From IMG/VR virus record IMGVR_UViG_3300033562_000715: 64,000 nt of DNA. One strand, given 5' to 3'. Below, piece after piece: positions 17,455-57,950 of this stretch. The stretch's first letter is position 1. The number at the start of each line of letters is the position of its first letter. A program made the translations under genes and the position numbers. The stretch comes from an uncultured virus (IMG/VR IMGVR_UViG_3300033562_000715) (lineage: Duplodnaviria; Heunggongvirae; Uroviricota; Caudoviricetes). The notes below the pieces were generated by a model. That model was not told where the DNA came from and ran no database searches. It worked only from the letters and a program-made list of their open reading frames with translations.

Positions 17455-18405
17455 ATGGGTACTTTAAGAGAATTAGGTTCATCTGACTGCAATGTTCACT
17501 TGATATTTTCTCCAGCGAGTATTGCAGAGATGTTTGTATATGATACATTGAAAGAAACATGTAAGGCATCCCTTGATAGTGTTATAACGGTAAGTTCAAA
17601 ATCAGAATTCAAAAGCATGTTAGAGCTAGTAAACATGGATTCAATGTTAGCAGACCGTTGGTTGGTTGTTTTAGATTACTCAAAATTAAAATCACAGTGT
17701 AACACTTTAAAGGGTTTATTTGACTTAGATACTACAATTTTTATGGTAAAAGTAGCAAATTACAAAGACTACAAAGAGTTTAAAGAACTTATTAAGACTT
17801 GTAATGATTTATACTTATCAATATTAAGATATGCTGATATTTCTTTTCTTTTAGGTGAGTATATTAGTAACGGTAAGGTGCTAGACTTCGTAGCAAAGTC
17901 TTATGCTAGAGACCCTGAGAAGATATTTGAATTGAGACAGAAGTTGAAAGAGGGTACTAAGGTAGAAAACCCTAAAGATGTAACCAAACTTATTGGAGAG
18001 AGTGCAAGTTCTTTAGCACAGTTTGCTTTCTTATTACTAGCAGACCCACCTACAACAGCTAGAGGTTATTCTATGGTATATAGAAAGCGTATTCAAATGG
18101 CTGACTCTTTAATAGAAACCTTTGGTGTAGGTAAGTTTAAGAACTTCCTAACAGCTACTGTAAAAGATATTTTGGATATAAAAGTATTGTACTTACAGGG
18201 TAAGTTATACAGGTCAATACGTGATTTACCTGAAGGATTTGATGAAAAAAGGTTATCTAGGTATAACTGGTCTTTAACTAGAATAACAGACGAAATACCG
18301 TATAATAGATTAGTAAAATTATATTGGTTATTAAAAGACAGTGGGTATTGGAGAAGCAAGAAAGATTTATTAGACTTTATATATAAATACTATGGAGGGT
18401 TGTAA
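17455..18405 (+). CDS. DNA polymerase III delta (HolA)-like clamp-loader subunit
   Basis: 316 aa; ELVNMDSMLADRWLVVLD resembles the HolA S(L/M)F..(R/K)(L/V)V motif; degenerate AAA+ with helical C-terminus. Confidence 0.55.
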   Translation: MGTLRELGSSDCNVHLIFSPASIAEMFVYDTLKETCKASLDSVITVSSKSEFKSMLELVNMDSMLADRWLVVLDYSKLKSQCNTLKGLFDLDTTIFMVKVANYKDYKEFKELIKTCNDLYLSILRYADISFLLGEYISNGKVLDFVAKSYARDPEKIFELRQKLKEGTKVENPKDVTKLIGESASSLAQFAFLLLADPPTTARGYSMVYRKRIQMADSLIETFGVGKFKNFLTATVKDILDIKVLYLQGKLYRSIRDLPEGFDEKRLSRYNWSLTRITDEIPYNRLVKLYWLLKDSGYWRSKKDLLDFIYKYYGGL

Positions 18406-18407
18406 GA

Positions 18408-19076
18408 ATGCATTTATTAGCAAGTTGTAGTTTAGAGAAGAGTCAGTCTTTTAATGGTACTTTAGTATTACCAAATGAAGATAAAAAGACTCCAGATAAG
18501 GTTTCCTTGAATATAGTAGTAGAAGATGGAAACACAGAAGTATTTAAAGTTTTAGATAAGGGTAATGAATTTGTAACCTTTGTAGAGACCCCTACCCCAT
18601 TTTGCCCAACATCCTTTAAGGGTAGGGTATTCAATGAGTACTCTTTAGACCAATTAAGGTCGGGTTTTATTAAGCCAGTAACAGATGTAATAAATTTAGT
18701 AAGACTACCTAATGGGTATTGTGATATGCTAGAACTAGTGAATCAAACTGTACTTAATCCTGATGTAAGATTTATTGGTGGCAATTTATTAGGTGTTGAG
18801 GGGGTGAACATTGGTAGAACTGACAATGGTAAAGAAAAGCTATCTCCAGTTTTCCTTGATGTATATGACACCTTTCTAGAAGTAGACCTAAATGACTTAC
18901 AGGGTATTCAAGAAAAAGTAAAGAAGAATCGTACTAAGGTAGAGGGTGCAGCAAAAGTAAAGGTTTCAAAGAAGGGTAAAAGTACATCAGGCTCAGGAGA
19001 AAAGGCTGAACGAAAAGTTTCCAAGCGTGTAGCAGCTTTCAATAACTTATTTTCGAGTACTGAAGAAGAATTTTAG
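18408..19076 (+). CDS. hypothetical protein with basic C-terminal tail
   Basis: GGAGG RBS; Lys-rich tail ending in acidic EEEF. Confidence 0.75.
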   Translation: MHLLASCSLEKSQSFNGTLVLPNEDKKTPDKVSLNIVVEDGNTEVFKVLDKGNEFVTFVETPTPFCPTSFKGRVFNEYSLDQLRSGFIKPVTDVINLVRLPNGYCDMLELVNQTVLNPDVRFIGGNLLGVEGVNIGRTDNGKEKLSPVFLDVYDTFLEVDLNDLQGIQEKVKKNRTKVEGAAKVKVSKKGKSTSGSGEKAERKVSKRVAAFNNLFSSTEEEF

Positions 19077-19229
19077 AAGTACAAAATATGTTTATATAAC
19101 CTTAATATCTTACTTGCATTAGAATTAAACTAAACTTTTTATTTTTTATAGAGTTTACCTTTTAACTTTTCTATAAATAGGTTAAACTATAAGTAGTGAA
19201 AGTTTAGCTTATGCGAAGGAGGTTTTAGA

Positions 19230-19844
19230 ATGAACTATTTTGATTATCAGCCTAAAGTACCGATGGGGAGAGTATGGAGCTTATTTAGTCAATTAGCAGA
19301 CATGTCAGAAAGTGAGAAATTGGGTAAATATTCTTACAGTCCTGAATATTCTCATACATTAGAGATAGTAAAGGCAGCAACAACAGGTTCTTTATCTCGT
19401 AAGGAAGATGTTTATGAAGATTTTAACTTAAGGGCTTATGAAGCTAGTTGTAAACGCAATGAAACTATAAACTTTAAAAAGTCATTAGAAAAATGTTTGT
19501 TCATAGTAGACAATGTTTCTTCTGATGGGGAAACAAAAACAGGTTATGGTGACATTTCAGAAAATAAGATAAGGTCTATAGAAGATGCTTTTGTTTCTGT
19601 AGAATCCTTAAGTTCGTTTGAATCAAATATTGATATGCTTTTGAATATCCGTGTAAAATATATTGAATCTCAGGGTATTGATTTAGTAAGTATATTAGTA
19701 AATTCATTAAAAGGTATACCAGATGCAATAGAAGGTATGGCTGAGTTTGTTAAAACAAATTTACAATTAAAGGAACTAATTGTAGACTTGTGTCAGGATG
19801 GTAAAGATGGTAAATTATTAGCAAGATTAGCAACAGTTGTATGA
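19230..19844 (+). CDS. hypothetical protein
   Basis: GGAGGT RBS, 204 aa. Confidence 0.75.
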   Translation: MNYFDYQPKVPMGRVWSLFSQLADMSESEKLGKYSYSPEYSHTLEIVKAATTGSLSRKEDVYEDFNLRAYEASCKRNETINFKKSLEKCLFIVDNVSSDGETKTGYGDISENKIRSIEDAFVSVESLSSFESNIDMLLNIRVKYIESQGIDLVSILVNSLKGIPDAIEGMAEFVKTNLQLKELIVDLCQDGKDGKLLARLATVV

Positions 19845-25209: not shown

Positions 25210-25421
25210 AGACCTTTAGGGTAAATAAGAATAAACTGTTAACCTATAAATATTTTTAAGATATAAGAAACTACTCGTTTTTGCTCTAGAATTACTGATT
25301 TCAAATAACTTAATATTGTTTTTAGTGTTCTTTAAAGAAAGGCTTATCATATAAATTATGGTAAGCCTTTCTTAATTTTATATAGAATACATATATCAAA
25401 ATAAATATTGGAGGAATTGAA

Positions 25422-26333
25422 ATGAGCGTAGATTATTTAGAGCAACTAAAAACGGATGGTGTGCACAAAGGCTATTATAACGTGGCTGAAGCAGTATTTA
25501 ACATGGGTAAATGTAAAACCCAAACTGAATTAATGGACTCTTTATTGGAAAAGAGTACTAAATTCAAATTTGATGAGTGCTTAACTTGTGAGCAATTAAT
25601 TACTCAAATACAGACTGTTATGAGTAACTTACTTTGGTTTGCGTATGCAGATTATCAAAATGGAGCTTTTGTTAGTAAATGCAATGACTTAGTATTTAAT
25701 CTAGAAAAAATGTGTAGTAATTTTGATTCTGTAGATGAATCAACCCAATTAATACTTCTTGAGAATGTTAAATTAATTAAAGCAGTATTAGTATATCAGG
25801 GTGCTAAAGGTTTGGATTTAAGTGGTTCATGCAGTCTTAAAGATATTAAGGAGGAATTAATAATTAATCCAGTATCCCAGATTGTATACAATAACTACTT
25901 AGGTTTAACTTTGAGAAAAGAAGCATCTGTTGTTCTTAGAAATGCTTGTAGCATAGAAGATGAAAGAGACCTCTCCTATGAATCTATGAGTAAAATGCTT
26001 GCATTTGAACAGTACACTAAGGAAGATATTGAAACAGTGGATATGTTAATACAAAAAGCCAGAGAGCACTTTGATATGGCTGCATTTTTAGCTGAACAAC
26101 TATCTGTTTGGGAAGGGTATCTTGAGTACAACTTGATCAGATTACGTGTAATGAGCTATCTAATTACACCTATCCACAAAGAAGACATCATAATCGGTAT
26201 AAGAGAAGTAGTAAACATCAGGAAAGTTCTCAGCTTGGTATTTAAAAAAGATGAATCCTATTTGGGTAAAATGTTTTTAGAGGAATATGAAGCAGCATTA
26301 AGTCTATATGCAAACTTTCAGAGTTTAGTTTAA
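25422..26333 (+). CDS. helical (TPR-like) hypothetical protein, stand-alone unit
   Basis: GGAGG RBS; flanked by hairpins near 25340-25372 and 26352-26384. Confidence 0.7.
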   Translation: MSVDYLEQLKTDGVHKGYYNVAEAVFNMGKCKTQTELMDSLLEKSTKFKFDECLTCEQLITQIQTVMSNLLWFAYADYQNGAFVSKCNDLVFNLEKMCSNFDSVDESTQLILLENVKLIKAVLVYQGAKGLDLSGSCSLKDIKEELIINPVSQIVYNNYLGLTLRKEASVVLRNACSIEDERDLSYESMSKMLAFEQYTKEDIETVDMLIQKAREHFDMAAFLAEQLSVWEGYLEYNLIRLRVMSYLITPIHKEDIIIGIREVVNIRKVLSLVFKKDESYLGKMFLEEYEAALSLYANFQSLV

Positions 26334-26351
26334 TATGCAAACAAAATTATT

Positions 26352-26384
26352 AAAGGTAACCCTTAACTATGGGTTACCTTTTTT
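26352..26384 (+). terminator. intrinsic terminator
   Basis: AAAGGTAACCC-loop-GGGTTACCTTT plus T-run. Confidence 0.75.
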
Positions 26385-26577
26385 AATATGGATGTTAATA
26401 CATTACAGAATATGTTAAAATAGCTGTATCATGTAAGGTCTTATTTAATTATCTATTTTATTTATTTTTTGTTGAGAGGCTCATTATGTAAGTTATAGTG
26501 ATTATTCTCCTAAATAGTATAGTATAATAGAAGTTAAATAATTTATGCACTGTTAGGTAGTGCAGAAGGAGATACTA

Positions 26578-28221: not shown

Positions 28222-28470
28222 ATGGAAGACAAACACAATTTATTATCAGGTTCTTTAGTTTTTAGGTATCAGATGTTAGGTAGATTAAAGTCAGATTGTG
28301 ACTACTACTTAGGTTTTGGTGGACGTTCTCCTAGAGTTCTTTGGGCACATGATGAGAAAGAACAAATACAATTAATGAGAATGTTGCATAAATCTTTTTC
28401 AAAAGAAGAAAAGCCTCAGTTTTTATCATTATCTCAAATCAATGCTTATGAGAAGGAAATGTGTAAATAG
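28222..28470 (+). CDS. LPD11 (large polyvalent protein-associated domain 11)-like protein
   Basis: FRYQMLGRLKSDCDYYLG...LWA...EEKPQFLS...I.AYEKEM matches the LPD11 pattern as recalled. Confidence 0.75.
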   Translation: MEDKHNLLSGSLVFRYQMLGRLKSDCDYYLGFGGRSPRVLWAHDEKEQIQLMRMLHKSFSKEEKPQFLSLSQINAYEKEMCK

Positions 28471-53394: not shown

Positions 53395-53712
53395 ATGTTT
53401 AAGTATTTTAATAATTTAAGTGTAAAAGACGTATTATGCTTTTGCATAAAGGTTTTAATTGGTGTTTCATTACTTGTGATAATCTTCATTGTTTATAAGT
53501 GTTGTAGTACTCCCTATGTTAAACCTATTTCAACAGGTTATGTTGTATCTTCAAAAGAATCTAGCGTAAATAATATAAATGATATATCTGTAGGAACTTT
53601 TAATGTAAATATAAAAGTACCAGAGAATACAATAGTGACTTTAAAGGTATTAAAACCTATAACCTTTTCACCAATGCATATTGAAAATGGTGAATCCTAC
53701 TCAACAAAATAA
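53395..53712 (+). CDS. membrane-anchored hypothetical protein
   Basis: N-terminal TM helix; GAGGTG RBS. Confidence 0.65.
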   Translation: MFKYFNNLSVKDVLCFCIKVLIGVSLLVIIFIVYKCCSTPYVKPISTGYVVSSKESSVNNINDISVGTFNVNIKVPENTIVTLKVLKPITFSPMHIENGESYSTK

Positions 53713-53773
53713 GAAAGGTGGAATAAATTAGTAGTAAACTTTAGGGTACTGCTACTAATTAAAAGGTGTAAAC

Positions 53774-54094
53774 TTGGAAAAATATATTAATGAACTACAG
53801 AAGAAGAGAGATTGCTGTAAAATATGTCATGAAAAGGAGCTAATAGGTTGTGATACTTGTGTAAACCACGTATCAACGGATGACCTTGTTATCTTATGTG
53901 AACATAATACATCAGAAGTACAGGGTAAGTTGATTGAGATAGAATCATTTTTACAAGAGCAACTTAAGGATATGGAGAGTATACCTAGATTTGAGACTAG
54001 CCCTAAGAACTTATTTAAGAGTTTACTTTTGGTGTTTGGAATGTTATTCTTTGCAGTATTAGTAATAACCTTTGTGTACTACTTTTCAGCGTAA
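53774..54094 (+). CDS. Cys-rich protein with C-terminal TM helix
   Basis: CCKIC...CDTC; LLLVFGMLFFAVLVITFVYYF. Confidence 0.65.
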   Translation: MEKYINELQKKRDCCKICHEKELIGCDTCVNHVSTDDLVILCEHNTSEVQGKLIEIESFLQEQLKDMESIPRFETSPKNLFKSLLLVFGMLFFAVLVITFVYYFSA

Positions 54095-54130
54095 GATATA
54101 TAGAATAGCTTATATTTTTTTAAGATTCAC

Positions 54131-54159
54131 TTGTTATATACTTAAGACTTTGGTAAACT
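54131..54159 (+). promoter_or_regulatory. promoter of the non-coding RNA unit
   Basis: TTGTTA-17 bp-TAAACT with TG extension; no RBS or ORF follows. Confidence 0.65.
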
Positions 54160-54181
54160 ATAAGTATCTTAAGTTATATCT

Positions 54182-54278
54182 GCCTCGAATAGTCGATGGA
54201 GAGACATAGTGAGAACACTAGTAGGTGAATAATAACGTTATGAATAACCTAATGTGGGTTCGATTCCCAATCGAGGCA
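54182..54278 (+). ncRNA. tRNA-like RNA with non-canonical 4-nt anticodon loop and long variable arm (pseudo-tRNA / tRNA mimic)
   Basis: Acceptor GCCTCGA/TCGAGGC plus discriminator A; D arm GTC-GATGGAGA-GAC; TAGTG-AGAA-CACTA; variable stem TAGGT/ACCTA; T arm TGGG-TTCGATT-CCCA; no CCA. Confidence 0.8.
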
Positions 54279-54507
54279 CTGGTGTAGTAGCACATTCTGA
54301 TAGTGGTAAGGAGTGTATGCACCTAAAGGACCACTAAACCTATAAGGATCTTAAGCATTTCGCTCACTTTGGCTTAGGCATCTCTGTTAAGAGATGAAGA
54401 GAAGTAGTCTTTCTAGCAACAAGCCTTGTTCCTTGCCCGAGGAAGCTAGATTGAAATTGAGATGGCGAGGATTTTAGTAGGGGTGAAGAACACCTTTACA
54501 CACCAGT
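54278..54507 (+). ncRNA. ~230-nt highly structured RNA, raiA-motif-like
   Basis: Closing helix ACTGGTGT/ACACCAGT; internal helices ACATTCT/GGAGTGT, CTTAAGC/GCTTAGG, CATCTCT/AGAGATG, TCTAGC/GCTAGA, AGGGGTG/CACCTTT; pseudoknot TAGTGGT/ACCACTA; GC richer than flanks; no ORF. Confidence 0.7.
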
Positions 54508-54509
54508 AA

Positions 54510-54572
54510 GTTGGGGTTCCAAAGAGATGGGAACTTGTAGTAAATAAACACTATGAGTTCAATATCCCAACG
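54510..54572 (+). ncRNA. degenerate tRNA-like element
   Basis: 7-bp acceptor-like GTTGGGG/TCCCAAC, TTCC/GGAA arm, GTAGT/ACTAT arm, T-loop-like GTTCAAT but no full T stem. Confidence 0.45.
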
Positions 54573-54576
54573 ATGT

Positions 54577-54619
54577 TTGAGCCATCTAGTAGTAATATTA
54601 GATGGCTCAATTTATACTT
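54577..54619 (+). terminator. terminator closing the ncRNA unit
   Basis: TTGAGCCATCTAGTA-GTAA-TATTAGATGGCTCAA 15-bp hairpin followed by TTTATACTT. Confidence 0.7.
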
Positions 54620-54632
54620 AGGAGGTAAGAAA

Positions 54633-54851
54633 ATGAGTAAGGTTTATATTAAGGCAGTTGAAAATATTACATTAGAAGGTGAAAAGGGTTATGTAAAGTC
54701 TGTAAGAAATACTGAGGGAGGGTATATGTACTCTTTAACAGATGATAAAGTGCTTGCAATAGACTATATTTCAGCAGACCAAGCTATGTGTTACATTGAC
54801 TTAATAGCTGAAAATGGATTAAAAAATAATATTGTATTTATTATAGAATAG
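54633..54851 (+). CDS. hypothetical protein
   Basis: ATG 54633 after GGAGGT. Confidence 0.7.
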   Translation: MSKVYIKAVENITLEGEKGYVKSVRNTEGGYMYSLTDDKVLAIDYISADQAMCYIDLIAENGLKNNIVFIIE

Positions 54852-54863
54852 GAGGGTATCCGT

Positions 54864-55199
54864 ATGAAAGGTACTAATGAAAAACCAGAAGAAAAGGGTG
54901 TAACTTTAAGAGAGCTTTTATTATCTCTTATAGATGATGAAGAGCGAGGTTACAATTTCTTAAGAGCTCTATCTAAAGAAGATAAAGCAACTATAGTAGA
55001 AAAGATTGTAACTATTCGCAATAACAACTTACCAATAAGAGAGTTTATGAGAATTCAAGGTCATTCTCTCTCAATGTTGGAGAGCATGTATGTTAAGGAA
55101 GAAACTACAGGGGATTTGTGTAAAGATATAGCAAGAGCTATAGATTATGCTTGTATTTTTGTTGGTTGTTGTTCAGAAGAACAAGAGGAGATGCTATAA
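54864..55199 (+). CDS. hypothetical protein
   Basis: GGAGG RBS, 111 aa. Confidence 0.7.
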   Translation: MKGTNEKPEEKGVTLRELLLSLIDDEERGYNFLRALSKEDKATIVEKIVTIRNNNLPIREFMRIQGHSLSMLESMYVKEETTGDLCKDIARAIDYACIFVGCCSEEQEEML

Positions 55200-55200
55200 T

Positions 55201-56064
55201 ATGATAGATATAATAGTTAAGCCTATTGAAGATGCTGTAGAATGTGTTTCTAAGCAAGAAGACTATATTCCTTTATCTCCTGAGGAAAGAAGAACTTTAG
55301 AACTCCGAATCAAAGATTTAGATAATGAAATTAGAAAATTGGAAGCAGATATTAAGGGTAATCCTGATAAAGAGGTAAAGACTGTAGAGTGTGAGTATAG
55401 GCAAGAAGACCCTACTTCTTTATCAGAAGATGAAATATTTGATAAAGAATCACAAATTGAAGATTTAGACCATAAGATTAGAGGACTAAAGGAAAATTAT
55501 AAGGATGATATTGGTAAAATTATAGCGAAGGAAAAACCTTTTTCAGAAGAAGACATAAAAGCAACTAATAAATATTTTAATGTTTTAACTATGAAATTGA
55601 AACAGTCTACTGACTTTTTATTGAAGTATGGAATAAGGGTAAACACTTATACCTTAGTAGACTCGCCCAAACCTAGTATACTATCTAAAGAGAGCCTATT
55701 AGACGTTATAAGTAATGTACGTTCAGACAATTGGAAGGACTCTTGTTGTGGTACTAACTATCTTGTAGAAGATCTTTGTAATGAAACAGCAGTTGGTATT
55801 TTAAACCTATTAAATGGTTATATTCTACCTATGTATAGAATAGGTGATGTTGTTTGGTTTATAAATGAGCATCTCTCTCCAATTTCATTTAGTATTAACT
55901 CTATAACTATAAGATTGAATGAAGTTTCTTACACAGGCTCTTATAACAAGAAGGAAGAATGGCGATCGAATGAATTTTTTTACACAGGCTCTTATATTGA
56001 GAAGAGAGAATGGCAATTGTTTGAATCTAAAGAGAGTGCTTTAAATAGCATAAGAGGGGATTAA
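55201..56064 (+). CDS. coiled-coil hypothetical protein with internal repeats
   Basis: ATG 55201 after GAGGAG; duplicated coil segments and duplicated YTGSY...EW. Confidence 0.7.
   Translation: MIDIIVKPIEDAVECVSKQEDYIPLSPEERRTLELRIKDLDNEIRKLEADIKGNPDKEVKTVECEYRQEDPTSLSEDEIFDKESQIEDLDHKIRGLKENYKDDIGKIIAKEKPFSEEDIKATNKYFNVLTMKLKQSTDFLLKYGIRVNTYTLVDSPKPSILSKESLLDVISNVRSDNWKDSCCGTNYLVEDLCNETAVGILNLLNGYILPMYRIGDVVWFINEHLSPISFSINSITIRLNEVSYTGSYNKKEEWRSNEFFYTGSYIEKREWQLFESKESALNSIRGD
55918..56019 (+). repeat. imperfect in-frame 51-bp tandem duplication
   Basis: TTACACAGGCTCTTATA at 55929 and 55980. Confidence 0.75.
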
Positions 56065-56066
56065 AA

Positions 56067-56903
56067 ATGAAAGAACACTCAAGTCCTTGTAACATTTGTT
56101 TAGAAACTACTTGTACTAAAGAGGGTTCTTGCAACTGTAAGAAATGCAATCATATTTCAGAATGCAATAGGTTTTTACACGCTAGTATAAGAATAACCAA
56201 TAAGTGTACTCAAAGTTGTAGGCATTGTTGCTTTTGCAGTTCTCCTAAGAGTGAAATAATGATGTCAGTTGCTCAGGCTAAAGATACTAGCATCTTTTTA
56301 GAAAACAACAACGTAAAAAGTATTCAAGTTTTAGGAGGTGAATTCTTTTGCAATCCAGATTGGTCAGAAATTTTGGAGATGTTCTTGAAAGTCGTAGCAT
56401 CCATCCGTCTTGTTACTAATGGTGACTGGGCAGTCGTTTCAAATGTTAAAACTTCCCTTATAAGGTTAAATAAAGAATATCCAGGGGTTCTAAAAGTGTC
56501 TGTTTCTAAAGATAAATGGCATACAAATAGTAATGTAGATTTGGCTGAAGAATTCTTAAGTGCAAATGGTTTTGAGTATAATATTGGTGAGTGTGAAAAC
56601 AATGACGAAGACTCTATTGTACCAGTGGGTAATGCATCCTTTGGAACTTCTTATTATGCTTGTTTCTCTTGCTACTGTAAGAATCCTAAGTATCATTATG
56701 CTTTCTTAATAGATGAAGAAGGGAAGATTTATAAATGTTCTTTTGGTGTTTGCAACTATGCTAGCATTAAAGACTATTTAGACGGTGGGTTTAGTAAAAG
56801 ATTCAGAACTTTTAATTTAGCTTTCAATAGCCAGTTCATATCTTCTTGTTCTGCTTGCTATAGGGTATTCAAAAGAGATAATGCAGTAGTAAGAACGGAC
56901 TAA
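56067..56903 (+). CDS. radical SAM enzyme with Cys-rich N-terminus and SPASM/twitch-like C-terminus
   Basis: TNKCTQSCRHCC (CxxxCxxC), LGGEF, VTNG, IDEEGKIYKC, CSAC. Confidence 0.9.
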   Translation: MKEHSSPCNICLETTCTKEGSCNCKKCNHISECNRFLHASIRITNKCTQSCRHCCFCSSPKSEIMMSVAQAKDTSIFLENNNVKSIQVLGGEFFCNPDWSEILEMFLKVVASIRLVTNGDWAVVSNVKTSLIRLNKEYPGVLKVSVSKDKWHTNSNVDLAEEFLSANGFEYNIGECENNDEDSIVPVGNASFGTSYYACFSCYCKNPKYHYAFLIDEEGKIYKCSFGVCNYASIKDYLDGGFSKRFRTFNLAFNSQFISSCSACYRVFKRDNAVVRTD

Positions 56904-56932
56904 TTTTCCTATTGTAATATATGTTTAATTAG

Positions 56933-56980
56933 AAAAAGGAATCATATTATTTAGAAAATCAAATAATATGATTCCTTTTT
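56933..56980. terminator. perfect 20-bp inverted repeat, probable bidirectional terminator
   Basis: AAAAAGGAATCATATTATTT-8 nt-AAATAATATGATTCCTTTTT. Confidence 0.75.
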
Positions 56981-57830
56981 TAATTATGCTTAATCTCAAA
57001 TACTTAGAATATGCCTAATTATCTTGAGTTTATATATGTACATACTTATTGACTTGTACTGAGGTTACAGTAGTACATTTACTTTAGACTTATTTTAGAA
57101 AGTGTATGGTATATTTTAGTTTTTGGAACGTAATATATAGACTTAGGATAGTACAGATTAGTCCTAGTATGGTATTAGTTAGAATAGTCATGACTATACT
57201 TAGACTTGGGATAAGCTACTTTAGACTTTGCATCGTTAATTATACTTAGGTAAATATACTTTATCTGCCTAATAGTGGAATCTGTTTATCTTATAAAGTA
57301 TAAGCATTTCTTTTGGACTAAAGCTAGAATAATCTAGTAATTCTACTATTGCAGTTGGTTAGTGGGTAAACTGTTTCTCTTTATTTTACATATTAATCCT
57401 TTGCAACCAAATCTTTTAACTATAATTGGTTTTCCTTTGGGTATAGATTTAATAAAAAATGTGTAAACTGTTAAATATTAAATATTGTTTATGTTTCATA
57501 TTATGTGTAGAGTTTGTGTTAAGTTCATTACAAGTTATGAACAGAGGTTAGTTCAGGAGCCTTTGTTCATTTTTGTTTAATTTTTTGTTTATTTTTTGTG
57601 TTTAACTTTTGTGTTAGAATATCGTGTGTTGTAAGTTTTCACGTGAAAATCTGCTGAGTCAGTGGGTTTCCGCAAAAATTATTCTGTGGATTGTACTTTG
57701 TTTAGTAAATTTGTTTAGTTGTTTTGTTTAAAAACTTTATTATATATGAAACATAGTAAGAACTTTAACAGTTGAAACATCTCAAATATTTTGGTTACTC
57801 TCTTTTAATAAAAGTAGAGAAGGTCTTAAA
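56981..57830. other. long non-coding region, candidate replication origin / partition site
   Basis: Longest intergenic gap; TAGACTT x4, phased TTTGT(T/G) repeats, TTTGTTTA x3 at 13-bp period, palindrome TTTTCACGTGAAAA. Confidence 0.45.
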
Positions 57831-57843
57831 ACAATGTTAGAAG

Positions 57844-57854
57844 TATGTTATAAT
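57844..57854 (+). promoter_or_regulatory. extended -10 promoter
   Basis: TATGTTATAAT, consensus extended -10, upstream of 57951. Confidence 0.6.
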
Positions 57855-57950
57855 ATACTTAGTGGATATCTGACAATTGTTTATTTTACCTACTTTTAGA
57901 ACGAAGATAAACAAAAACAGAAATCTAAACAGTGACGGAGGCAACTAGAC

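Follow-up and report, generated by a model that had tools for sequence, protein, structure and literature searches.

Does the 538-nt ORF-free gap at 54095-54632, which houses the candidate RNA studied here, carry an RNA gene, and if so, is that RNA a raiA RNA? A preliminary description had placed here a doubly pseudoknotted RNA of about 230 nt, either a divergent raiA RNA or a new class. Overall, our computational analysis of the window (the whole 64,000-nt stretch of DNA) indicates that the stretch is probably a phage gene for a non-coding RNA outside the catalogued families. The host sequence was rightly described as a phage-like genome, as it encodes DNA polymerase A, helicases, a ligase and HNH endonucleases, with every gene on the + strand. 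Within the gap and at its downstream border, five features were assigned besides the 230-nt domain itself (Table 1).

Table 1 Predicted features at the candidate RNA locus, with positions in the window
Feature	Position	Strand	Basis
Putative sigma-70-type promoter	54131-54159	+	Read directly from sequence
Leu-type (class II) tRNA mimic without anticodon loop	54182-54278	+	Cloverleaf fold
GC-rich multi-branched 230-nt domain	54278-54507	+	Predicted fold
Y-shaped domain, third folded module (67 nt)	54510-54576	+	Separate domain in the 54165-54620 fold
Intrinsic terminator (stem-loop 54577-54610)	54577-54619	+	Terminator scan
AGGAGG ribosome-binding site (54620-54625) and 72-aa ORF (ATG 54633)	54620-54851	+	Sequence, ORF list

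Composition and folding were compared with the rest of the phage and with shuffled sequences. The tRNA mimic and the 230-nt domain together form the most GC-rich 326-nt stretch in the window (42.9% GC at 54182-54507 versus 32.6 ± 2.9%; none of 2,547 windows equals or exceeds it), and the domain contains many stop codons in each of the three + strand frames. On the + strand its minimum free energy (MFE) is -72.1 kcal/mol, compared to -58.5 ± 4.6 kcal/mol for shuffles (z = -2.99; 0/200 shuffles as low), whereas the - strand reaches -56.2 kcal/mol (z = -1.27; 19/200 shuffles as low), an asymmetry that speaks for an RNA rather than for a DNA palindrome. By itself the z-score is only suggestive, because 5 of the 132 230-nt windows sampled from the same phage reach z ≤ -2.99. 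The lowest MFE among these windows belongs to the one overlapping the domain (-67.9 kcal/mol; next lowest -60.2 kcal/mol). When the 456-nt transcript 54165-54620 was folded whole, the 230-nt domain persisted and the modules stayed separate. The domain is closed by helix P1 (54278-54285 with 54500-54507; pair probabilities 0.72-1.0), and the predicted interior consists of a helix between 54301-54307 and 54330-54336, a long imperfect stem (54339-54375 with 54443-54481), a multi-hairpin junction (54379-54442) and a hairpin at 54482-54494.

The double pseudoknot of the preliminary description was only partly recovered. Its complementary segments exist: TAGTGGT (54301-54307) and ACCACTA (54330-54336) are perfect complements (duplex -8.1 kcal/mol), and TTTCGCT (54358-54364) can form six pairs with GGCGAGG (54464-54470; -6.8 kcal/mol). 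Individually, however, such segments occur at chance level: of 1000 dinucleotide shuffles of this domain, 766 contain a perfect 7-nt complementarity, and 173 contain four or more, four being the number in the real sequence. The TAGTGGT/ACCACTA pairing also does not require a pseudoknot; the ensemble gives a nested helix, with probabilities of 0.85-0.97. Folded alone, the proposed hairpins all form (54292-54316, -4.6 kcal/mol; 54350-54378, -4.9 kcal/mol; 54379-54396, -8.1 kcal/mol; 54412-54450, -10.0 kcal/mol; 54479-54497, -5.8 kcal/mol), but the second has an ensemble pair probability of 0.00 and its bases are occupied by long-range helices. The whole region looks like an RNA gene, though single complementarities do not exceed chance.

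Adjoining the 230-nt domain is a tRNA mimic that the preliminary description does not contain. Similar to a tRNA, it has a 7-bp acceptor stem (54182-54188 with 54271-54277; 7/7 pairs), a D arm with GG in its loop and a T arm (54254-54270; four pairs and one G.A mismatch) with a consensus T loop, and it has a long extra arm (54222-54251); two of its arms have 5/5 pairs each. In a tRNA, the 5-bp anticodon stem would carry a loop of seven nucleotides, but the anticodon-arm position (54207-54220) holds a 5-bp stem (54207-54211 with 54216-54220) under the tetraloop AGAA. Judged from its sequence, the mimic is unable to decode, with a tetraloop in place of the anticodon loop. The cloverleaf folds at -28.9 kcal/mol (z = -3.65; 1/200 shuffles as good). 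Its discriminator is A54278, which is at the same time the first base of P1, and CCA is not encoded. Gene finders did not call it: the Rfam tRNA model (RF00005) gave 17.7 bits (E = 1.2), below its 29-bit cut-off, ARAGORN with default settings found 0 tRNA genes in the window, and ARAGORN -i produced on the mimic no more than a forced model, which required a 17-nt “intron” to be placed non-canonically. An intron-containing tRNA was rejected, as the intron would fall at positions 30-31; the tRNA introns known in bacteria are long group I introns.

No homologue of the RNA came from the following searches. Scans of IMG/VR with protein and alignment queries and with DNA patterns returned a single distant relative, L034, on a 140-kb record that IMG/VR classes as a provirus (G123). 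L034 has an RNA cluster of tRNA-Leu(TAA), tRNA-Gly(CCC) and tRNA-Leu(AAG), together with a further cloverleaf that has a 5-nt “anticodon” loop and is not called by ARAGORN. The CCA of its tRNA-Gly is followed immediately by the hairpin CUGGUG-AAU-CACCAG, the letters of P1 here. In a BLAST search against the whole L034 record, 54165-54620 matched at four places over 17-20 nt each (E 0.1-0.7), and one of these places was a tRNA T arm. A genome-collection scan with the T arm and acceptor yielded two loci, neither with the 230-nt RNA: an isolated 3′ fragment of a tRNA-Leu that shares 23 identical letters with the mimic (L002), and a tRNA-Leu(CAA) whose acceptor and T arm are identical to those of the mimic (L003). 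Within the window, GGTTCGATTCC of the mimic occurs once. A single JGI metagenome locus (L001) proved unrelated on alignment and was dismissed as a chance match. With blastn, 54095-54640 had no match among 50,697 phage records; the same search at E ≤ 10 gave 13 short matches, 12 under annotated ORFs and one in an unannotated stretch. For the 72-aa protein downstream, a collection of 5.8 billion proteins contained no relative but itself, and for a neighbouring 400-aa protein there are 82 relatives (33-68% identity), encoded on Logan/ENA contigs of up to 257 kb.

Near-identical pieces of the locus were found in four sequencing runs from four studies; uncovered parts and the small-share runs X10-X20 were left aside for every claim, including any on habitat. 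Two natural variants bear on the fold, and T54296C is a further variant. A54270C turns the mismatch G54254.A54270 into a G-C pair and lowers the mimic from -28.9 to -31.0 kcal/mol. T54349A, present in 2/4 runs, breaks a mid-helix pair in a predicted long-range helix of the 230-nt domain and raises its MFE from -72.1 to -67.4 kcal/mol. An RNA-library contig (X6; 54310-54565) was rejected as evidence of transcription, being of depth 2.1, found with the same query and possibly DNA. Contigs X6 and X7 both end at 54565/54566, while the DNA contig X3 continues to 54645; nothing was drawn from the common end because X7 is not on record as RNA.

These data allow two explanations in which the locus is not a working RNA gene. 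In the first, the mimic and a cloverleaf-like junction at 54368-54451 would be remnants of a decayed tRNA cluster, with functionless spacer making up the rest. The L034 cluster of tRNAs with its uncalled cloverleaf is a fitting model, ARAGORN at a lowered threshold does draw a cloverleaf on 54368-54451, and the anticodon loop of the mimic is 3 nt short, as after a deletion. However, that threshold also gives spurious tRNAs on the opposite strand, the Rfam tRNA model is silent on 54279-54515 at E ≤ 10, and the GC spike covers the whole 326 nt. Intact stems, with the lone mismatch mended in a natural variant, would also be unexpected under free decay, and we regard this explanation as improbable. 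In the second, the stretch would be a GC-rich DNA element, such as a tRNA-Leu-derived attachment site or a protein-binding region, or simply a chance fold. This would agree with the chance-level complementarities, with the other phage windows of equal z-score, with the provirus status of G123 and with the lone tRNA-Leu fragment in L002, which is like an integration scar. It is at odds with the strong strand asymmetry of the fold, the terminator directly downstream, the lack of an integrase among the 69 ORFs scanned and the retention of a D arm and of both strands of the acceptor stem, features not required of an attachment site, and seems to us equally improbable.

The flanking signals are consistent with a separate transcription unit and also with a third explanation. 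The putative promoter consists of a -35 element TTGTTA (54131-54136), a 17-nt spacer and a TG-extended -10 element TAAACT (54154-54159); it was not listed by the consensus scan because it is weak (8/12 consensus positions). Its spacer includes the 12-mer TACTTAAGACTT, of which the window contains only three identical copies, each within non-coding DNA. The terminator, a 15-bp stem with a 4-nt loop followed by TTTATACTTA, is the only terminator-like site in 53600-55000 (shuffles 0.5 ± 0.7). Upstream of it, the Y-shaped domain contains an 11-bp hairpin (54531-54560), and its sole match is rliA at a sub-threshold 23.8 bits (cut-off 50 bits), a match that rests on hairpins. The 72-aa ORF is the first gene of a downstream block that continues with ORFs of 111 and 305 aa and a radical SAM protein (56067-56903).

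An alternative explanation is that the RNA is a cis-acting leader or attenuator of this block that controls read-through of the terminator, with the mimic serving only to separate it from mRNA upstream. As only 22 nt lie between the terminator stem and the start codon, the 72-aa gene needs terminator read-through, and with AGGAGG directly after the terminator there is no room for a separate promoter. The common + strand orientation of all genes fits as well. The motif AGATGGC occurs twice, at 54460-54466 in the RNA and at 54600-54606 in the 3′ half of the terminator, so that the 5′ half of the terminator, GCCATCT (54581-54587), could pair with either. However, chance alone would give about six repeated 7-mers in 450 nt, and it is unusual for a putative antiterminator strand to be set apart from its terminator by 115 nt and an entire folded module. 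In addition, riboswitch, T-box and leader families of Rfam gave no match, and known leaders have no tRNA mimic. We consider a leader rather unlikely.

The raiA label did not hold. The Rfam model RF03072 (209 positions; gathering score 101.3 bits) had no match at the gathering score in the window, nor at E ≤ 10 in scans of 1001 nt and 246 nt, while as a positive control it scored 111.8-172.5 bits in 44 of 121 Actinomycetota genomes. We also built a model (R1) from 9 raiA RNAs, with an automatic consensus structure that differs from Rfam's; with its filters switched off, it returned only trivial hairpins from the candidate (best 5.4 bits, the terminator hairpin) and no full-length alignment, and an nhmmer raiA search found nothing at the site at E ≤ 100. 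The sequence blocks listed in the preliminary description are nevertheless genuine raiA consensus, and look-alikes occur here in the same order, although the likeness is faint: AAAGGACCACUAA in the candidate versus AAAcGAuCCAcgUAA in raiA, GCAU..GGCUUAGG versus AUGgcgCggcuUAG, GGCGAG, and GGGGUGAAGAAC versus GGGGuCAAAaaCC. In a lenient raiA profile alignment the candidate scored -97, compared to -128.9 ± 13.3 for shuffles and +246 for a true member; 3/500 shuffles and 0/1,102 other phage windows reached -97. In a lenient alignment, 65 of the 92 invariant raiA columns were matched (54.7 ± 3.6 in shuffles), a value that one of 60 shuffles also reached.

Could the candidate then be a divergent member that keeps the raiA core (P1, P3, P4, PK1, PK2) and has drifted beyond the covariance model? 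The order of the blocks and the rarity of the profile score among shuffles would suit such a view, and the two RNAs are alike in length (about 200-230 nt) and in a terminal helix closing 5′ and 3′ ends. Two loop-to-distal complementarities are also possible in the candidate. However, the model searches were silent, the profile score is negative where a member scores far above zero, and the near-invariant P1b and P1c blocks, GUCUGUGG and CCAGGUCAG, are absent from 54278-54507; both are invariant in 23 aligned raiA RNAs. True raiA RNAs from two phyla, according to excerpts of PMC10861870, share about 51 positions that are conserved at 97% identity. The same excerpts describe raiA as a chromosomal gene of Bacillota and Actinomycetota, whereas the candidate is borne by a phage-like genome and fused to a tRNA mimic, and the one relative obtained, L034, is an IMG/VR viral record. 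In raiA PK1, as outlined in part of PMC12968392, the P3b loop is joined to the P5-P6 linker; the candidate's two loop-to-distal complementarities, themselves at chance level, place their segments differently, and its proposed pseudoknots appear to lie off the raiA positions. Divergent membership of the raiA family (RF03072; ModT of Clostridioides difficile) seems very improbable. On sequence grounds the candidate is not a raiA RNA, and a faint likeness in ordered motifs remains.

Other known RNAs did not account for the locus either. A survey of Rfam, including raiA, SRP, RNase P, tmRNA, 6S, ROOL and GOLLD, found no family at its gathering score in the whole window, and the same was true of OLE, HEARO, T-box, Y RNA-like, skipping-rope and other Rfam families. 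Below threshold, matches near the site were confined to rliA, mir-3473, Plastid-ycf2, tRNA, Bp1_162, STnc550, mir-203 and sR43. ARAGORN found no tmRNA in the window, lowered thresholds included. A tmRNA, in which the two ends of the molecule build the tRNA-like domain, was rejected since both acceptor strands lie within 97 nt and no short frame ends in Ala-Ala-stop, the usual end of tmRNA tag frames. Likewise rejected were an attachment site, a retron RNA and an IscB/TnpB guide RNA, for which the partner gene or the defining features were missing from the 69 scanned ORFs. A new RNA class, the other option of the preliminary description, would fit the evidence, and is at present unproven.

Our preferred reading, to which we give about an even chance, is a + strand non-coding RNA unit composed of promoter, tRNA-Leu-like mimic, 230-nt domain, Y-shaped domain and terminator, in which the mimic would be cut by tRNA enzymes and the RNA would act in trans. 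Host tRNA-processing enzymes would recognise the mimic, RNase P cutting its 5′ end before G54182 and an RNase Z-type tRNA 3′-end nuclease cutting after the discriminator A54278. Because this discriminator is the first base of P1, tRNA-end enzymes should excise the RNA, and the cut at A54278 would free a large RNA that starts with the first P1 pair. Being stable and folded, the freed product would then work in trans, perhaps as a decoy or scaffold. The ORF-free gap, the GC maximum, the lowest MFE, the strand asymmetry, the separate modules and the terminator argue for such a unit, as do the intact arms of the mimic, the identity of its acceptor and T arm to those of a real tRNA-Leu, the repair by A54270C, the sharing of A54278 with P1, the hairpin in L034 and the reported nearness of ROOL and GOLLD to tRNAs. 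Counting against it are the z-score, which is not exceptional for this phage, the weak promoter, the variant T54349A, the short distance from terminator to start codon, equally in keeping with a leader acting in cis, and core positions 8 and 14 of the mimic, which are A and G compared to U and A in a real tRNA-Leu.

A more far-reaching version would make the locus the first example seen of an uncatalogued class of pseudoknotted phage RNAs, with a very remote or convergent raiA core, fused to an anticodon-less tRNA-Leu mimic. As bacterial LeuRS, according to excerpts of PMC9976931, needs A73 and the D/T-loop elbow and not the anticodon, the mimic may be leucylated. In this version, which we hold to be unlikely, the mimic would gain CCA and perhaps leucine, and mimic and large RNA together would disturb either a tRNA-dependent process of the host or a tRNA-targeting defence.

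Several known systems resemble the proposed unit. Small stable RNAs of the phage T4 tRNA cluster also join a non-decoding tRNA look-alike to a larger non-coding RNA, and the large ornate RNAs ROOL (about 580 nt) and GOLLD (more than 800 nt) of phages and prophages are further points of comparison. The latter two are, according to the excerpts of PMC12286853, often located near tRNA islands, with GOLLD sometimes covalently linked to a tRNA, and they are like the candidate in being phage-encoded structured RNAs near or linked to tRNAs. Unlike the candidate they are much larger, and neither Rfam model matches it. In vertebrates, MALAT1 and MEN-beta, with mascRNA and menRNA, likewise fuse a non-decoding tRNA look-alike to a larger non-coding RNA; abstracts describe mascRNA as a small RNA resembling a tRNA, with RNase P taking part in its processing from MALAT1. 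There tRNA-processing enzymes set the ends of both products, as they would for the candidate, but the mimic here is upstream, so that the 3′ cut and not the 5′ cut would define the large RNA, and the setting is bacterial and viral. The candidate is known from a single lineage, and its value would be that of a lead. If real, it would be a compact example (about 330-430 nt) of the link between ornate phage RNAs and tRNAs, and it indicates that raiA-like blocks can occur in RNAs rejected by the raiA model, which matters for the search for distant raiA RNAs.

The 230-nt domain (54278-54507, + strand) folds with an MFE of -72.1 kcal/mol, compared to -58.5 ± 4.6 kcal/mol for its shuffles (z = -2.99; 0/200 as low), whereas its reverse complement reaches -56.2 kcal/mol (z = -1.27; 19/200 shuffles), a strand asymmetry that G.U pairing in an RNA would be expected to produce. 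An alternative explanation is a DNA-level element or a chance fold: among 132 windows of 230 nt sampled on the + strand (mean z -0.45, sd 1.27), five had z ≤ -2.99, so that by z-score the domain ranks no higher than roughly the top 4%. By energy, the lowest of these windows was one overlapping the domain (-67.9 kcal/mol; next -60.2 kcal/mol). The strongest single signal comes from base composition: the GC content of 54182-54507 is 42.9% vs 32.6 ± 2.9%, which ranks first among 2,547 overlapping 326-nt windows; raised GC is a known pattern of structured-RNA genes in AT-rich genomes. Two windows of the 132-window scan, 25301-25530 (z = -5.2 vs shuffles) and 26221-26450 (z = -4.2), were more extreme than the flagged RNA and overlap the start and the end, respectively, of the ORF 25422-26333.

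The candidate RNA is housed in an ORF-free gap at 54095-54632 (ORF cut-off 70 aa; seven such gaps exceed 250 nt), where all three + strand frames are riddled with stop codons. When 54165-54620 was folded as one molecule, its four modules stayed separate; no terminator-like site other than the 15-bp hairpin with its T-rich tail turned up in 53600-55000, and A54278 is both the final base of the upstream cloverleaf and the first of P1, the helix closing the domain. The terminator stem ends 22 nt ahead of the next start codon, which makes expression of the genes behind it dependent on read-through; this position also fits a rival explanation, a cis-acting leader. Besides three ORFs that belong to no known family (72, 111 and 305 aa), the block downstream of the RNA (54633-56903) codes for a radical SAM protein of 278 aa whose N-terminus is rich in cysteines; it may represent an accessory operon for peptide modification. 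The radical SAM gene is followed by a 1,047-nt AT-rich stretch without ORF (56904-57950), which opens with a long terminator-like hairpin (~56935-56990) and contains two exact copies (57080 and 57217) plus looser copies of TACTTTAGACTT. For TACTTWAGACTT, the only other exact match in the window is at 54139, in the spacer of the putative promoter of the RNA; the repeat might serve as a binding site for a regulator or as a promoter element specific to the phage.

Features of the candidate RNA locus (window coordinates, + strand) and of the RNA cluster in the distant relative L034 (own coordinates)
Feature	Position	Description
Putative promoter	54131-54159	TTGTTA, 17-nt spacer, TGgTAAACT; weak, unlisted by consensus scan
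Module 1	54182-54278	cloverleaf (tRNA mimic)
Mimic, acceptor stem		7 bp
Mimic, D arm		3-bp stem, GG in loop
Mimic, anticodon-arm position		5-bp stem, four-base loop AGAA
Mimic, extra arm		long
Mimic, T arm		consensus tRNA T loop; GGTTCGATTCC unique to this site in the window
Mimic, discriminator	A54278	CCA not encoded
Module 2	54278-54507	P1-closed domain
P1	54278-54285 with 54500-54507	ACUGGUGU with ACACCAGU; pair probabilities 0.72-1.0
Nested helix	inside the 230-nt domain	UAGUGGU/ACCACUA; pair probabilities 0.85-0.97
Long imperfect stem	54339-54375 with 54443-54481	ViennaRNA
Junction	inside the 230-nt domain	carries four small hairpins; ViennaRNA
Hairpin	54482-54494	ViennaRNA
Module 3	54510-54576	Y-shaped domain
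Module 4		15-bp hairpin with T-rich tail
L034, tRNA-Leu(TAA)		
L034, tRNA-Gly(CCC)		
L034, cloverleaf	~18966-19036	5-nt "anticodon" loop; missed by ARAGORN
L034, tRNA-Leu(AAG)		

The preliminary description had delimited the RNA to the 230 nt and missed the cloverleaf adjoining it upstream, which folds at -28.9 kcal/mol (z = -3.65). The AGAA tetraloop in the anticodon-arm place makes this a mimic without anticodon. It scored 17.7 bits with the Rfam tRNA model (cut-off 29 bits) and received no tRNA call from ARAGORN at default settings; an intron-bearing tRNA was rejected because the ARAGORN call needs an implausible 17-nt intron. A decayed tRNA cluster is a rival explanation. As regards possible charging of the mimic, bacterial LeuRS requires A73 and the D/T-loop elbow and can do without the anticodon (PMC9976931); the mimic has A73, C2-G71, G18G19 and its T loop, but carries A at position 8 and G at position 14 in place of U and A. 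In a scan of 185,579 species (one genome each), the 23-nt string of T arm plus acceptor turned up twice, once in a genuine tRNA-Leu(CAA) from a Microgenomates genome, where the 5' acceptor strand GCCTCGA is identical too, and once as an isolated fragment in Occultella aeris. The identity of T arm and acceptor with tRNA-Leu(CAA) marks the element as a Leu-type, class II tRNA mimic. The Occultella aeris fragment (locus L002, ~601-623), a 23-nt tRNA-Leu 3' end (T arm plus acceptor) with the rest of the tRNA missing, resembles the scar left when an element integrates into a tRNA-Leu gene.

ViennaRNA folds 54278-54507 as a single domain. We found all the complementarities and hairpins named in the preliminary description in place; however, the complementarities are individually without weight, being at chance level in shuffles (a perfect 7-nt complement in 766/1000 dinucleotide shuffles of the 230 nt; four in the real sequence and at least four in 173/1000 shuffles). 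The sequence of the proposed hairpin 54350-54378 is there, but its pair probability in the nested ensemble is 0.00 and forcing it carries a penalty of 6.6 kcal/mol before any pseudoknot bonus. Because nested-only folding cannot score pseudoknots, this value does not exclude the two that had been proposed, the first of which would be a sterically ordinary H-type knot. Near-identical copies from other samples carry four differences, which do not choose between the models: T54296C would break a U-A pair in the first hairpin of the pseudoknotted model and is unpaired in the MFE fold, while T54349A removes a U-A pair from an MFE helix (-72.1 to -67.4 kcal/mol) and is unpaired in the pseudoknotted model. 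Within the mimic, A54270C turns the sole T-stem mismatch into G-C (-28.9 to -31.0 kcal/mol), and T54239C lies in the extra-arm loop. The centre of the domain (54368-54451) is a cloverleaf-like junction with an 8-bp closing stem, a 7-bp hairpin and a 5-bp stem with a 7-nt loop; ARAGORN draws it as a tRNA only if the threshold is lowered, a setting that also yields spurious calls.

The likeness to raiA RNA that had been proposed was not borne out as family membership: the Rfam model RF03072 gave no match at gathering in the window, nor when stretches of 1001 and 246 nt were scanned at E ≤ 10, while as a positive control it found raiA in 44/121 sampled Actinomycetota genomes at 111.8-172.5 bits (the control stands at 43/120 minus the unpublished genome G090). 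We aligned 23 of 30 fetched raiA loci, dropping L013 (motif match spanning only 116 nt), L033 (309 nt long) and five with no motif-screen match (L014, L016, L022, L026, L028). Our own covariance-type model from nine of the aligned loci, run with all filters off, gave hairpin-sized matches only (≤5.4 bits, the best on the terminator), and nhmmer with the 23-sequence profile gave no match at the domain at E ≤ 100. A very divergent raiA is a rival held to be very unlikely. The sequence blocks named in the preliminary description are genuine raiA blocks of the Rfam consensus, and similar blocks occur in the domain in the same order. In a lenient, self-made position-specific alignment, the candidate scored -97, compared to -128.9 ± 13.3 for 500 shuffles (3/500 reach it), -177.8 ± 21.3 for 1,102 other phage windows (0/1,102) and +246 for a true raiA member; the same alignment matched 65/92 invariant raiA columns (60 shuffles: 54.7 ± 3.6, maximum 65). 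This likeness, noticed post hoc, is real but faint. Known raiA RNAs have ~51 positions at 97% identity (PMC10861870) and a conserved P1b/P1c (PMC12968392), whose letters the domain lacks. We do not assign the RNA to raiA.

The window (GC 32-33%) covers the replication region of a large phage-like genome, encoding a family A DNA polymerase, two UvrD-like helicases, an NAD-dependent ligase, primase parts, HNH endonucleases and many proteins without known family; all ORFs of at least 150 aa that are likely real lie on the + strand. An 82-aa ORF (28222-28470) is a stand-alone LPD11 (large polyvalent protein-associated domain 11; E = 6.9e-29). Blastn against phage records gave no match, hence no close relative of the phage there, and nothing in these records exceeds 30% identity to its helicase. 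The 400-aa product of a neighbouring gene, recorded on a 140,355-nt contig, has 82 relatives (33-68% identity, contigs up to 257 kb). In the distant relative L034 (140,467-nt IMG/VR record; 400-aa protein 32% identical), the gene order around this protein is kept, but the "137-aa" and "215-aa" genes lie ~1.1 kb apart there vs 6.9 kb in the window. The RNA, with the small ORFs and the radical SAM gene of the block 54633-56903, therefore sits in an accessory insert that L034 lacks; BLAST of the L034 record found no counterpart of the 230-nt RNA. L034 has its own 1.3-kb RNA cluster (18334-19600), with long perfect hairpins between tRNAs. Directly after the CCA of its tRNA-Gly stands the hairpin CUGGUG-AAU-CACCAG, with the same letters as P1. 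This one relative suggests that the lineage shares a design in which a helix begins at the 3' end of a tRNA, and that the 230-nt domain occupies the place of the 3-nt loop.

The acceptor/T-arm helix and elbow are what RNase P and tRNA 3'-end nucleases recognise, and a precursor without CCA is an RNase Z type substrate. The corresponding helix and elbow of the mimic may be recognised by these enzymes, and a cut after A54278 would yield a large RNA beginning at the first pair of P1. The ROOL and GOLLD phage RNAs are described as "often near tRNA islands" and sometimes covalently tRNA-linked (PMC12286853). In its predicted fold the 230-nt RNA resembles a stable, structured RNA, and we give a real tRNA-mimic-linked phage RNA an even chance. 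Rather than an established new class, the locus is a good lead.
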